Below are positions 7,335-20,339 of a DNA stretch of 64,000 nt, one piece after another (within the stretch, counting starts at the first letter, position 1; each line of letters begins with the position of its first letter). A program made the translations under genes and the position numbers. Location: positions 4,065-68,064 of the forward strand of contig JBDKUY010000017.1 in assembly GCA_039679445.1 (NCBI GenBank). Direction: 5' to 3'. The notes below the pieces were generated by a model that worked only from the letters and a program-made list of their open reading frames with translations, had not been told where the DNA came from and searched no databases. Source of the DNA: Methanofastidiosum sp. (GTDB taxonomy: Archaea; Methanobacteriota_B; Thermococci; Methanofastidiosales; Methanofastidiosaceae).

Positions 7335-9347
7335 ATGGGTAAATATAAGAAATTTCTATTGCTCCCGATTTTAATAATTATGGTATTGGGAACAATACCC
7401 TTGATATATTCAGATAGCACTGAAGAATATTACATGCTTACGTTAATAAATAATGAACGCCATGCACAGGGGCTTGAGCCTCTCACAATGAATTCAACTC
7501 TTTCCTCTGCCGCAAAACTTCACAGCCAGGATATGATTAACCGGAATTTCTTTAATCACATAAATCCTGATGGGCTAACGCCTTCAGACAGAGCTAGAAA
7601 TGCGGGGTATAGCTTCATTGCATTGGCAGAAAATATATGTGGAAACCCATCTATCGATTCTGGGCATTCTTCACTTATGGGAAGCCCTTCTCATAGAGTC
7701 AATATTTTGAACCCTTCTTACAAAGAAGTAGGGATAGGAATAGTTGACGGTGGGCCTTATGGAAAAATGATAACTCAACTCTTTGGCACGCAATCAGAGA
7801 ATACTGTGACAACTCCAACTACAACACCGCAGGAACCTCAAGGAAAACCGGATCTAAAAATAGAAAAAATAGATTTTTCGGGACAAGCTGAACCATTAAA
7901 ACAGATATCAATAAAAATAACATTAATCAACTCGGGGAAGAAAAATTCCGGGAATTTTGTATTTGCTGTTTTTGAGGGACCTCTTGAAAAAGGAAATCAA
8001 TTGGGCAAAATAAATATTCCCTCTCTTTATGTTGGACAAACAATAACAGCTAATTTTAATTGGGCCCCACCTACTGAAGGGAGCTATACAATTTATTTTG
8101 TTACGGATTATAATAAAGATATCGATGAAGAAAATGAAAATAACAATATGGCAACTTACCCTTTATCTGTTAAATTAACAAATTCGCAGACTACTTCTGA
8201 AGAAAATCCAAGCAATCAAAATAATAAATCTGATCTATATATATCCAAAAGTGATATCTCCTATAATCAAATAGTCTATGAAGGCGAATCTTCATTAATA
8301 TCTTTTAGAATAAGAAATATTGGAAAATCAACAGCTTTTGTAATACCCATTAAAATATACGCTAATGGCGAGCTTAAAGCATCTTCGACAATAAATCAGA
8401 TCTTACCATCTTCATATACGGATTTGGCACTATATTTGACATTCTCAAATACTGGTGAGAATGTCATAGATATCAAAATTGATCCTGATAACAGTATAGA
8501 CGAAATTTCAAAAAATAACAACTACGCAAATTTCAACATAAAAGTTGTACCAAGAGAAAATAATTCAATTGCAACGCCGGATAGTAATCAAAATAACAAA
8601 CAGATATATCAAAATATTGATTTACTAGTATATCCTTACTACATTACAATTGAAGAACAAGGAAATGGATTTTTCTCAATTAAAACGAAAATAAAAAATA
8701 AAGGAATTACTAGTGTAGATAACTTTTCTGTAACTATCTACCAGAGAGATACTAATACTTCAAATAACACATTTATAGAAAGATTTTATCTATCCTTGGG
8801 CCCGGACCAAATAGTTGAAAAGATTATTACATTTATACCAACTACAGAAAAAGGAGAGATTGTTGTAGTTATTGATGAAGAAAATATAATCAAAGAAATG
8901 GATAAGAACAATAATATTGCTACAAAGAAATTTTCTAATATTATTAATGAATCAGATATACCCGAAATGAGAAGTGATTTCATACTAAATACAACTCCTC
9001 AAGATGTAAATATATCTAATTTGCTCAAAGTCACGATGAAACTAAAAGATATTAATTCTTCAAATGCATATCTATATTACAAGTATGACGAGGACATTAA
9101 TAGTTCCTTCTTCGTTCTAAAGATGAATAATGAAGGAAATTATAGCTACTTGGCAGAAGTAGAACCATTAGGAAAAACTAATCTATTTTATTATTTTGAG
9201 GTAGACACAGGTAATAACATAATAAAATCACCTTATGAGTCACCGAATGAGCTATATTCGACTATTATTAATTATCAACAAAATATTCAAGAAAAAAGAA
9301 ATCCAAGTTTTTTAGATAATGTAAGAAAGATTTTTGGATTGATATAG
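7335..9347 (+). CDS. secreted CAP/SCP/PR-1 domain protein with CARDB-like repeats
   Basis: N-terminal signal/TM. The CAP domain is residues about 35-150 (HAQGLEPL..FFNH..GENI..HRVNILNPSYKEVGIGIV). It is followed by at least three repeats with the CARDB-type pattern (DLKIEKIDFSG..., NNN.A.....V). Confidence 0.65.
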   Translation: MGKYKKFLLLPILIIMVLGTIPLIYSDSTEEYYMLTLINNERHAQGLEPLTMNSTLSSAAKLHSQDMINRNFFNHINPDGLTPSDRARNAGYSFIALAENICGNPSIDSGHSSLMGSPSHRVNILNPSYKEVGIGIVDGGPYGKMITQLFGTQSENTVTTPTTTPQEPQGKPDLKIEKIDFSGQAEPLKQISIKITLINSGKKNSGNFVFAVFEGPLEKGNQLGKINIPSLYVGQTITANFNWAPPTEGSYTIYFVTDYNKDIDEENENNNMATYPLSVKLTNSQTTSEENPSNQNNKSDLYISKSDISYNQIVYEGESSLISFRIRNIGKSTAFVIPIKIYANGELKASSTINQILPSSYTDLALYLTFSNTGENVIDIKIDPDNSIDEISKNNNYANFNIKVVPRENNSIATPDSNQNNKQIYQNIDLLVYPYYITIEEQGNGFFSIKTKIKNKGITSVDNFSVTIYQRDTNTSNNTFIERFYLSLGPDQIVEKIITFIPTTEKGEIVVVIDEENIIKEMDKNNNIATKKFSNIINESDIPEMRSDFILNTTPQDVNISNLLKVTMKLKDINSSNAYLYYKYDEDINSSFFVLKMNNEGNYSYLAEVEPLGKTNLFYYFEVDTGNNIIKSPYESPNELYSTIINYQQNIQEKRNPSFLDNVRKIFGLI

Positions 9348-9433
9348 AATTAATCCGGCATAGTATAACAATAGAATATTTTTAAGTTACTATAAGAATA
9401 CTAAAAAGAATAAATAAAGAAAATTTGAGACTA

Positions 9434-9640
9434 TTATTTTGGTCTTGCAATACCGCAAGAGTCTAGCTTGCAAGCATCGAATGCTTTGTTTACAGCTCCG
9501 ACTCCATATTTCGTGGAAATCTCTGCCAAAGCTGAGTCTATAGTTTTGCGCGTTGCAGGATTGCTCTTAGCATCGCCCATTTCTTCTCTTATAATTTCCA
9601 AAAGATCTAAATAAGTTTTTTCTGTTCCCATTATCTTCAA
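9434..9640 (-). CDS. hypothetical small protein (68 aa)
   Basis: ORF only. Small helical protein with C-terminal Cys pair. Confidence 0.3.
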   Translation of the reverse strand: MKIMGTEKTYLDLLEIIREEMGDAKSNPATRKTIDSALAEISTKYGVGAVNKAFDACKLDSCGIARPK

Positions 9641-9964
9641 CTCCAGTAATTATGCCATATAATACATAATCACATGTCATAATATGTTGTTCAATATATA
9701 AACTTTTCGTTGATTGTATAAAAAATAATAATCAATATCGGCAATTAGAGGAATACTAAAAATAGTTATACTTCCCTAATATTTGATGAAAATTATTAAA
9801 GATAGTAGAAATTAATAACAAATTTAAATATTCACAAATTAAAATTTAAAAAAATTGTAAGAATCACAAAACTATAATTTTGAACAATATCCTAATATTT
9901 TACTTTAATAAACTATCATCTCAAACTTAGAAGAGAATACTGCCGCATTTAATTTATAAAAAAG

Positions 9965-10049
<85 letters not shown>

Positions 10050-12243: not shown

Positions 12244-12328
12244 CGCCGGGGATGGGATTTGAACCCATGCACTCCAGAGGAGAACGGGCTTTCCAGGCCC
12301 GCGCCGTACCAAGCTCAGCAACCCCGGC
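12244..12328 (-). tRNA. tRNA-Ser (anticodon GGA), class II
   Basis: Reverse complement GCCGGGGTTGCTGAGCTTGGTACGGCGCGGGCCTGGAAAGCCCGTTCTCCTCTGGAGTGCATGGGTTCAAATCCCATCCCCGGCG. Anticodon stem CGGGC/GCCCG with loop CTGGAAA (U33, GGA), and a long variable arm. Confidence 0.85.
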
Positions 12329-17837: not shown

Positions 17838-18767
17838 CTAATTAGTATTTCCTGTGACAATACCTATGATCTTAATGTCTCTCTCTTGTGCACTCATTGT
17901 GTTTGTTTGGTAGAGCGCGTCCATTACTGCATTCGCAAAGTTAACTGTTGTCTGTGTTTGGCCATCGGTTTTTGACCATACATCTTTTATTCCTGCAAGG
18001 GATAAAATTTTCTTACCGACTCCACCTACTGCAAGGCCCAAACCGTTTGGAGCTGGCATTAAAGTTACAGCGACACTACTTGCCTTACCGGTTACTCTAA
18101 ATGGAACTGTGTGAGCTGTACCACATTTGCATTCCCAACTGCCACATCCTCTCTTCACTTGAATAACATTAAGTTTGGCATTATTGATTGCTTTTCTAAT
18201 TGCAGGTCCGACTTCTTTTGCTTTGGCCTTACCAATTCCAACATAACCATTTCTGTTACCTATAACAACCATTACTGAAAATCTGACTTTTCTTCCAGAG
18301 TCAGTCATTCTCTGAACCATATTAATGTTAAGGACTTCCTGATTATTCTGATCAGTAACTTCTGGTAGTAATACATCTACTATCTCAGGCTCCATTATTC
18401 TAAGGCCCTTATTTAATATCTGTGAAATATCAGTAATTTCTCCGTTTGCTACCATTCTGCCAAGTTTTGTCTTGGGGGTCCACCTATTTCCCATAGATTT
18501 TCTTTCTTCCTCAAGCCTTTTCTTCTCAGCAATAGATAGTTTTTTTATAACTTCTTCTTCAGAGGTTGTATCTTTAATAACGACATCTTCAGCAATTTCA
18601 TCTTCCAGGGAAGTTTCTTCCAATGCATCTTCTTCGGGGATGTCTTCAACTATTTCACTTGGTTCTTCAATTATCTCTTTGGCCTCAAGGGTCTCTAACT
18701 GCTCTTCCTTTACTTCCTCAACAGGTTCTTCGATGATTTCTTTTTTCTTTCTTGGCATTACATACAC
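17838..18767 (-). CDS. rps5: 30S ribosomal protein S5 (uS5) with 91-aa acidic N-terminal extension
   Basis: The canonical uS5 start [21 protein letters not shown] begins at residue 92. Residues 1-91 are E/I/V-rich low complexity but in frame, and abut the L18 stop. Confidence 0.85.
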
Positions 18768-18768
18768 C

Positions 18769-19341
18769 TCATAGTTTGTCTATTTTAGTTTTAATCTCTT
18801 CAAACATCCCTGGTATTTTTGAAGGATCAGTCTTATTCTTTAAATAATTAGAAAATATCTTCTCTTTTAAAGATCCTTCAAGACCTTCATAATATGAGGA
18901 GATGTCCTCTCCCTTTACTCTGTTTTCTGGAGGGAATATACTTTCATCTACATTAACGTTACATCCTGCGTCAACGAATCCTTTCAAAGCTGCGTAGTTC
19001 CTTCCACCTTTTATGGACCTTTGAAGGCCTATATCAAGTATGAATTCATCTGCAATCTTTTTAGCCCTTTTACCACAAAGGTATCCTGTAAGGTATGCTG
19101 CTGGTGTGTTACCGCAGTGGAAGTTCCACCCCATATCTCTTAATTCCTTTGAAAAGGCTGTTGTGAGCGTCTTATCGCCTTCAAATGTAGAACTTACAAT
19201 TTGGATTAATATATTATTTAGTGATTTTCTTATTACGACCCTATTCTTTCCAGATTTGACTAAGGCAAGCCTTCTCCTATAGTTAGTCTTACCATCTCTT
19301 CTTCTCTTAAAAGGTACTCTTGATCTTGGTCCAGTTGCCAT
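18769..19341 (-). CDS. rpl18: 50S ribosomal protein L18 (uL18)
   Basis: [31 protein letters not shown]. The start was set at the internal Met to avoid overlap with eL19. Confidence 0.9.
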
Positions 19342-19345
19342 TGCT

Positions 19346-19807
19346 TCACCTCTTCCTCTTTTCCGATACAAGGCCGTGTTCTTTTATGTAATTACTCATG
19401 TAAGAAACACTTCTAAAAGCTCCACCTTTAGCCATCCTATAAAGTTTTCTGTATGAACCTTTGTCAATATTTTTGGATTCTCTTAATTCAATTAAAGTCC
19501 TTCTTAATGGCCTTATTGTATTAATCCATCTTCTCTTCTTAGGATATCTCGCAGTGGCTTTTCCTTTTCGGGAACCAAATCCACTCATTCTTCCTTTCTT
19601 TCTTTTGACGTGTCTCTCTCTTGCTCTATGTCTTGATATGCCTGCTTCCTGTTTCTTCTTAATCTTGCCACTATCGATTAATTTTCTGACATCTTCTCTG
19701 GTAATTGCCATAGAAATCTCAGGTGCACTGTTGCTGTCAATCCAAACTCTGCCTTCGCCGCATTTTAGTAACTGTGATGCAAGTCTCTTCTGAACTTTTA
19801 GATCCAT
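19346..19807 (-). CDS. rpl19e: 50S ribosomal protein L19e
   Basis: MDLKVQKRLASQLLKCGEGRVWID. The start was set at the internal Met. Confidence 0.9.
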   Translation of the reverse strand: MDLKVQKRLASQLLKCGEGRVWIDSNSAPEISMAITREDVRKLIDSGKIKKKQEAGISRHRARERHVKRKKGRMSGFGSRKGKATARYPKKRRWINTIRPLRRTLIELRESKNIDKGSYRKLYRMAKGGAFRSVSYMSNYIKEHGLVSEKRKR

Positions 19808-19811
19808 ATGA

Positions 19812-20339
19812 TCATTCCTCCACCAATATACCGGCATCTTCTGCCTTTCTCACTATATCAGACCTTATGTCGCTATCAATACTAAGTGGAACTATTAGTT
19901 TCTGGATATGATCTTTAATAGGTTCAATAGCATCAAACTCTTCAACTGACGTAACTTTTACATGAGTCAAGGATGGATTTGCTATTTTAAGATTAGATTT
20001 AGCAGCTTTTTTGACTATCTCAATCTTCTTTTTGTTTCCAACAGTTGCATTGATTCTAATTATGACATTTTCTAGGCCATCAATTTGTCCTGGATTTGTA
20101 ATCATGACCTCTTCCAAGCCAGATGCGTGTCTGCCTCTAACTTCTTTTGGCCCCCTGTACCCAACTGAAACTAGAGGTTGCTTTCCACTTCTTTTCATTC
20201 TCATCTTGTTATCTTTACCTCTAGGTTTTCTCCATGTAGGATTGTTCTTAAAGGATTTCTTCTTCCATGTTTCAGTTCTTAGAAATTTTGGCCTCTTGCT
20301 ATTAAGCTTTTTTCTAACTCTTAATAATCGTAAACTCAT
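19812..20339 (-). CDS. rpl32e: 50S ribosomal protein L32e (with about 50-aa C-terminal extension)
   Basis: TWRKPRGKDNKMRMKRSGKQPLVSVGYRGP core. Residues 125-175 are beyond the usual domain. Confidence 0.85.
   Translation of the reverse strand: MSLRLLRVRKKLNSKRPKFLRTETWKKKSFKNNPTWRKPRGKDNKMRMKRSGKQPLVSVGYRGPKEVRGRHASGLEEVMITNPGQIDGLENVIIRINATVGNKKKIEIVKKAAKSNLKIANPSLTHVKVTSVEEFDAIEPIKDHIQKLIVPLSIDSDIRSDIVRKAEDAGILVEE

Follow-up and report, generated by a model that had tools for sequence, protein, structure and literature searches.

A probable acidic, disordered N-terminal tail on the ribosomal protein uS5 of Candidatus Methanofastidiosum

Introduction

In a tightly packed ribosomal protein operon of the methanogen genus Methanofastidiosum, the reading frame of uS5 runs on without a stop for some 270 nucleotides upstream of the position where the archaeal protein canonically begins. 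Does this stretch encode an acidic tail on a universal ribosomal protein, or is it an untranslated spacer? We analyzed the locus within a 64,000-nucleotide (64-kb) stretch of DNA, hereafter the window. The original prediction, made from the sequence of the window, had favored a tail over a 274-nt spacer, and this preference is upheld by conservation of the frame, purifying selection, a conserved Shine-Dalgarno (SD) motif and ATG, and loss of the internal Met codon in one species, L007. Based on comparative sequence data and a structural model, the segment is very probably a translated, selected and disordered acidic N-terminal extension of uS5 in Candidatus Methanofastidiosum.

Results

The uS5 gene and its operon

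The gene lies on the minus strand, between L18 and L30, in the archaeal spc operon order S8-L6-L32e-L19e-L18-S5-L30-L15-SecY; the orientation first given for it needed correcting, while its coordinates and sequence were right. The maximal open reading frame (ORF) covers 17838..18767 and opens with GTG (309 aa). The features on which the argument turns are as follows.

17838..18758, minus strand: complete uS5 (rpsE/rps5p) coding sequence including the N-terminal extension, 306 aa plus stop, from the ORF, Pfam, NCBIfam and full-length orthologues
17841..18482, minus strand: canonical archaeal uS5 core, residues 93-306, matching Thermococcus/Pyrococcus (64% identity class), dN/dS 0.033
18765..18770, minus strand: Shine-Dalgarno GAGGTG, overlapping the L18 stop TGA (18771-18769), 6 nt before ATG 18758
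18492..18494, minus strand: internal Met codon, residue 89 counted from ATG 18758 ('Met92' in the maximal ORF), the start in the NCBI annotation

Pfam S5 domains were found at residues 143-205 and 227-292 of the 309-aa ORF, with scores of 89 bits for PF00333 (S5_N) and 73 bits for PF03719 (S5_C). Two NCBIfam equivalogs of archaeal uS5, NF003125 (325 bits, cutoff 252) and TIGR01020 (316 bits, cutoff 182), match from residue 87-91 of the 306-aa protein onwards. Among uS5 chains of solved ribosomes, phmmer retrieves 6skf_Ag of T. kodakarensis (E = 7e-87) and 4v6u_AF of Pyrococcus (E = 1e-85), in alignments that span only query residues 84/91-304. By family, operon position and solved chains, the gene encodes an archaeal/eukaryotic-type uS5. 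An NCBIfam/profile search with the first 88 residues alone returned no family match.

Two further observations were made in the window. At the Rfam gathering threshold, two tRNAs were detected elsewhere, and no RNA family in or near the extension. The tRNA genes, each of 85 nt and therefore presumably of the long-variable-arm types, lie at 9965-10049 and 12244-12328, both on the minus strand, in or next to ribosomal protein clusters. Positions 8001-10000 have a GC content of 0.28, compared with about 0.35-0.39 in their surroundings.

Start codon and initiation signals

Read on the minus strand, the junction with L18 is GAC AAA CTA TGA GGTG TATGTA ATG CCA AGA AAG. The true start is almost certainly ATG 18758 (MPRKKKE...) and not GTG 18767, which gives a protein of 306 aa and an extension of 88 residues; the acidic tail first proposed thus stands, and its length of 91 residues does not. 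The element tGAGGTG followed by 6 nt and ATG is present in 12 of 12 sequences (the window and 11 complete species loci), and GGTG/GGAGG-type SD motifs lie 3-9 nt upstream of the start in most genes of the cluster. GTG 18767 is not a conserved start because in L005 a TAA codon stands immediately 5' of the ATG; together with the position of the SD, this rules it out. Since translation would begin at ATG 18758, the L18 stop and the uS5 start are separated by 10 nt, in which the SD lies, and not by the 1 nt originally reported. The translated stretch from ATG 18758 to the internal Met codon measures 264 nt.

Upstream neighbors also have maximal ORFs that are probably over-extended. That of L18 (18769-19371, minus strand) opens at TTG 19371, and an ATG at 19341 has GAGGTGA 4 nt upstream; that of L19e (19346-19837, minus strand) opens at ATG 19837, and an ATG at 19807 has GGAGG 9 nt upstream.

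Reading frame and selection

To compare species, codons were threaded onto a protein alignment of the window gene and 11 complete loci, all species representatives. Across the extension, the uS5 frame is free of stops in all 12 sequences, and each of the other two sense frames contains 3-17 stops. From GC content, the chance of an 88-codon stop-free run at the local base composition is about 0.002. The E/I/V/D-rich segment reported in frame and without a stop in the window is also stop-free in 11 further species, and the orthologue comparison proposed with it revealed no stop or frameshift inside the segment in the 11 other complete species or in more than 20 protein clusters. All length differences within the extension are whole codons: -1/+1, a net +2 in L009, +7 in P0008 and, through a local duplication, +8 in P0014.

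Substitution patterns point the same way. Using the Nei-Gojobori method, we obtained a dN/dS of 0.20 for the extension and 0.033 for the core. Within the extension, the ratio is 0.15 for codons 1-12, rises to 0.31 (up to 0.45) in the middle and falls to 0.06 over the last 24 codons. Synonymous divergence is alike in both parts (dS 0.65 in the extension, 0.70 in the core), so that the extension is not a cold spot of mutation, nor was it recently transferred. In a binomial test against neutrality, carried out on five species pairs that do not overlap, non-synonymous changes are too few in the extension as a whole (p = 5e-16) and also in its middle (p = 5e-6). Variable sites in the extension number 43, 32 and 68 at codon positions 1, 2 and 3, with the third position varying most.

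Net charge stays between -16 and -21 across species, though dN in the middle reaches about 0.5 between the most distant ones. Length is 87-90 residues in the species representatives, and up to about 96 in two protein clusters. This comparison indicates that selection holds the reading frame, the length and the net charge more than the exact sequence.

We also considered, and rejected, a plus-strand ORF at 18472..18774 (100 aa, S/F/L-rich) as a gene. It is stop-free in all 12 species, as a shadow of the GAA/GAG-rich frame, and variation by codon position fits the minus-strand frame. Separately, the fragmentary contig L010, from MAG CSSed10_256R1, carries two irregularities. It opens within the extension, with a tandem duplication of 57 nt (19 codons; L010:1-120). 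It also has an in-frame TAA at L010:343-345, TCA in relatives, which falls in the conserved uS5 core, outside the extension; this probably reflects a strain variant or an error of assembly or sequencing.

Composition and anatomy of the extension

The 88 residues comprise 33 D+E (37.5%) and 14 K+R, for a net charge of -19; the core is at +12. Among the window's ORFs of 80 aa or more, the extension holds the most acidic 40-residue segment (0.475 D+E; next 0.35). Being exceptional at this scale, the charge is not a proteome-wide habit. An AlphaFold2 model of uS5, built from 35 aligned sequences, gives residues 1-64 a pLDDT below 50 and renders them as coil with no secondary structure. One long helix (residues 67-92) comes next and leads into the usual uS5 helices and the two domains; the known uS5 core is the one part modelled with confidence. 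With no family match and predicted disorder, the 88 extra residues have the character of a flexible additional N-terminal sequence.

From the model and the alignments, the extension can be divided into three modules: a tip, a polyacidic linker predicted to be disordered, and a charged helix that leads into the archaeal uS5 core.

18723..18758, minus strand: N-terminal tip MP(R/K)KKKEIIEEP, residues 1-12, basic then acidic, nearly invariant in 12 species
18567..18740, minus strand: polyacidic linker, residues 7-64 (about 58), predicted disordered, from AlphaFold2, composition and repeat
18483..18560, minus strand: conserved charged alpha-helix, residues 67-92, predicted by AlphaFold2 (block-mean pLDDT about 50-82, rising toward the core)

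At the tip, where dN/dS is as low as noted above, dS is itself unusually low (0.145), and codons 1-8 show no synonymous differences either. Because dS is low around the start, constraint also acts at the nucleotide level, and part of the conservation may concern the translation-initiation region of the mRNA rather than the peptide.

The linker is rich in E, I, V, D and P; residues 7-66 are 43% D+E with a net charge of -23. A unit of about 21 residues (KEIIEEPxExV...) occurs twice in it, at about residues 5-25 and 26-46. At an offset of 21, 9 of 14 residues are identical, a level reached in 5 of 300 shuffles of the protein; the copies in L010 agree at 12 of 14. At the DNA level, Tandem Repeats Finder reported no repeat in 18400-18800, and a codon-shuffle test was not significant (108/300).

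The helix, in contrast to the truly new part before it, has counterparts in relatives. It stands in place of an N-terminal segment of about 18 residues in other Methanofastidiosia and in Thermococcales, and the last 10-20 or so residues of the extension align with this short segment. The last ten or so residues of the helix match Pyrococcus uS5, whose phmmer alignment begins at query residue 84. The new part is thus approximately residues 1-70. A canonical uS5 start had been placed at residue 92 of the maximal ORF: the Met codon is where it was said to be, yet the homology to relatives begins before it.

Distribution and origin

The nearest proteins all belong to Candidatus Methanofastidiosum (class Methanofastidiosia, formerly WSA2). 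They form about 22 clusters of 82-97% identity, which span all 306 aa and have lengths of 304-313 aa. In a locus scan of one genome per GTDB species, we found 12 loci with the extension (L001-L012), from Methanofastidiosum or from MAGs labelled 'uncultured Thermococci archaeon' or 'Methanofastidiosia archaeon'. Among the scanned species representatives, no species of the genus has lost the tail. Shorter uS5 proteins without it occur in other Methanofastidiosia (232-237 aa, 59-66% identity), Theionarchaea (217-218 aa) and Thermococcales (235 aa). In L032, a sister within Methanofastidiosia, the same operon order is observed, with L18, a 9-nt gap and a uS5 of 234 aa. Because the sister operon is identical except for its shorter uS5, the difference is an insertion within a protein and not a gene lost or gained. 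On this distribution, the extension was acquired within the N-terminal part of uS5 at roughly genus level; it is confined to Methanofastidiosum, of which the tail is a clean synapomorphy, that is, a shared derived marker.

How did it arise? The 21-residue repeat and the whole-codon duplications between relatives suggest growth by in-frame tandem duplication: most likely, the new part arose through codon-sized duplication of an acidic unit within the ancestral short N-terminal segment. Nothing in the sequences suggests capture of a domain from another protein. Residues 1-92 gave no match at E <= 0.001 among 1.84 billion representatives at 50% identity, a weak negative in that known orthologues were also missed. 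When the 88-residue extension was used in a word-indexed search, P0138 was the sole match, and full-length orthologues were likewise missed. Both are weak negatives because low complexity seems to blunt such searches. P0138 (132 aa) was considered as a stand-alone copy of the extension and rejected, as it is a piece of a frameshifted uS5 gene on a metagenome contig covered only 1.4x. On that contig, frameshifts split L18 and uS5 into several short ORFs (L035:2148-3331).

Several other uS5 proteins with unusual architecture were encountered. P0096 (L034:1501-2508) is an archaeal uS5 of 335 aa that starts 36 nt after L18 and has an unrelated P/E/K-rich N-terminal extension of about 115 residues; judging by its sequence, a long N-terminal tail seems to have been gained here independently. 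P0033, P0039, P0066 and P0067, from MAGs labelled 'Thermococci archaeon' or 'Methanomicrobia archaeon', have a K/E-rich tail of 35-70 residues at the C-terminus and not at the N-terminus. The metagenomic uS5 proteins P0027 and P0028 contain internal core duplications of 60-100 residues, most likely assembly artefacts.

Alternative readings

The alternative that survives best grants translation and denies function. According to this reading, the tail is a tolerated low-complexity expansion, produced by slippage or duplication and kept since any frameshift or stop would destroy an essential gene. Its repeat structure and the recurrent codon-sized duplications (P0008, P0014, L010) would be expected of such an expansion, and a weakly constrained low-complexity region could also show the relaxed dN/dS of the middle (0.31-0.45). 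The tail searches, weak negatives as they are, gave no homologue elsewhere, and other archaea have unrelated uS5 tails (P0096 at the N-terminus; P0033, P0039, P0066 and P0067 at the C-terminus). However, dN/dS in the middle is well below 1 (p = 5e-6), and charge and length vary within close limits even as the sequence diverges. Hardly any change is seen in the tip and the helix, and the genus shows no loss of the tail. We therefore regard a functionless tail as unlikely, and prefer a tail maintained by selection.

A second possibility is dual initiation, in which a long form from ATG 18758 and a short uS5 from 18494 would produce two ribosome populations. The internal Met is present in 11 of 12 species, near the ancestral start position of some relatives, and the purine-rich Glu/Lys codons upstream of it resemble an SD in most species. 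In L007, however, the codon is replaced by ATC (Ile), with no compensating start nearby, and the aligned residue is not Met in other Methanofastidiosia or in Thermococcales. The suggestion that an SD or promoter motif might lie just upstream of this Met also fails: the only candidate SD is AGGA at 13 nt, outside the 3-9 nt spacing of the operon; the SD-like GAGG reads GAAG in L008, L009 and L012, a synonymous change; and a putative internal promoter, the TATA-like run GTTATAAAAAAA about 45 nt before the internal ATG, was rejected, as the run is not conserved at synonymous sites. Dual initiation is accordingly very unlikely, and the internal Met codon at 18494 is probably an ordinary internal residue of the long protein.

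The remaining reading is that of the NCBI annotation. Three NCBI protein clusters, P0023-P0025 (218 aa), begin at the internal Met (MGNRW), and the sequence of P0023 ('Methanofastidiosum sp.') equals that of residues 89-306 in the window protein, so that in GenBank this same gene is annotated as starting at the internal Met. Annotation is inconsistent within the genus, as the original Ca. M. methylothiophilum deposits and Prodigal-type calls give a uS5 of 305-306 aa. Despite those three clusters, a Theionarchaea uS5 (217 aa) that begins at the equivalent position, and a weak SD-like GAGGA upstream of the internal Met in the window, the idea that the upstream 264 nt are an untranslated spacer or leader, open by chance, has hardly any probability left and is essentially excluded by the comparative record: the frame is kept with codon-sized indels in 12 species under a dN/dS of 0.20 (p = 5e-16), L007 has an Ile codon at the supposed start, the GAGG is lost synonymously in three species and the spacing is 13 nt instead of 3-9, a perfect and invariant SD and ATG lie 264 nt upstream, and the region contains no Rfam family.

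Discussion

Comparison with known ribosomal tails

N-terminal tails of uS5 have been described in three other lineages. In the spinach chloroplast ribosome, uS5c has an 86-aa N-terminal extension (NTE) that is mostly invisible in cryo-EM and lies at the mRNA entry site and makes that site more protein-rich (PMC5737520). The Methanofastidiosum tail resembles it in its nearly equal length, its position at the same end of the protein and its flexibility; the chloroplast protein is, however, nuclear-encoded, of bacterial type and of independent origin, and no sequence similarity was found between the two. In the actinobacterium Cutibacterium acnes, density for the uS5 NTE is seen in the mRNA entrance, where it would block mRNA loading, and the authors compare it with SARS-CoV-2 Nsp1 (PMC10085706). 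This too is a lineage-specific NTE, and it serves as a model for the gate or mimic proposed below. It is a compact globular density in a bacterial ribosome, whereas the Methanofastidiosum tail is much more acidic and predicted to be disordered; sequence search found no homology between them.

The third case is the NTE of eukaryotic uS5 (Rps2/RPS2), which is unstructured, RG-rich and basic, acts as a hub at which partners such as the Tsr4/PDCD2 chaperone and importins bind, and is stated to be absent from archaea and bacteria (PMC6648895, PMC10377357). Like the tail described here, it is unstructured and precedes the three-helix element of archaeal/eukaryotic-type uS5. The eukaryotic tail is basic and about 40-55 residues long, whereas that of Methanofastidiosum is polyacidic (-19), with neither Gly nor RG repeats, and is not homologous to it. 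In the PDB, alignments with eukaryotic uS5 chains start no earlier than query residue 72, and nearly all of them start at 86-93. Being polyacidic, the Methanofastidiosum tail cannot work as the RG-rich tail does. Insertions in uS5 are also the subject of a 2026 preprint, which deals with an internal beta-hairpin insertion in DPANN and not with the tail described here (bioRxiv 10.64898/2026.06.17.729505).

Acidic flexible segments are also present elsewhere on the ribosome surface. In the C-termini of the P-stalk proteins aP1/P1-P2, a flexible acidic linker bears a conserved peptide at its end, by which factors are recruited, and bacterial bS6 receives an oligo-Glu tail from RimK. The likeness extends, for the P-stalk, to the arrangement of linker and conserved tip. 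These tails are nevertheless C-terminal, belong to other proteins and sit at another site of the ribosome, so that the similarity is one of resemblance only.

A possible function

The small-subunit mRNA entry site is surrounded by uS3, uS4 and uS5 (PMC5737520), and archaeal uS5 has a beta-hairpin that extends into the entry channel for mRNA (bioRxiv 10.64898/2026.06.17.729505). Because uS5 NTEs in other lineages sit at or in the entrance, we envisage the tail as a flexible polyanionic arm tethered beside it; this placement is inferred from the bacterial and chloroplast structures (PMC5737520, PMC10085706) and from general knowledge. In archaeal and eukaryotic uS5, an additional element of three helices separates the N-terminus from domain 1 (PMC10377357), so the anchor of the tail may lie further from the channel than in bacteria. 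When extended, a disordered chain of 58 residues can span about 20 nm, long enough to touch the entrance from any point on the body's solvent face.

In this position, the polyanionic tail might compete with RNA for the basic surface of the entrance and, as a nucleic-acid mimic, gate or protect idle subunits. Before assembly, it may also neutralize the basic core (+12) in cis, as a built-in solubilizer. By analogy with the cases above, we put forward this specific mechanism, a tethered polyanion that competes with RNA at the entrance and gates idle subunits, as our preferred but tentative proposal, which is more likely to prove wrong than right. The conserved tip on its flexible acidic linker recalls the layout of the P-stalk, which makes recruitment of a partner possible. 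A bolder reading would make the tail a regulatory organ of the ribosome, acting in reversible hibernation or gating at the entrance of the idle 30S subunit, or in P-stalk-like partner recruitment. We consider this unlikely; if true, it would be an archaeal ribosomal element without a described counterpart.

Conclusions

In the literature searched, we found no description of an acidic uS5 extension in archaea. An acidic N-terminal tail of archaeal uS5 thus appears not to have been described before, uS5 N-terminal tails as such being known in other lineages. For annotation, comparative evidence indicates that the uS5 model of 305-306 aa is the right one: the 218-aa GenBank model leaves about 270 nt of a tight ribosomal operon unexplained and truncates a universal marker protein.

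The tail is a well-supported but modest curiosity of an uncultured lineage. Should gating or self-chaperoning prove real, the ribosome would here offer a simple natural case of a nucleic-acid mimic that acts in cis. The tail adds an archaeal and oppositely charged case to the recurrent, independent uS5 tails of eukaryotes, chloroplasts and Actinobacteria, and this recurrence suggests that the N-terminus of uS5, beside the mRNA entrance, may be a favored place for lineage-specific appendages.
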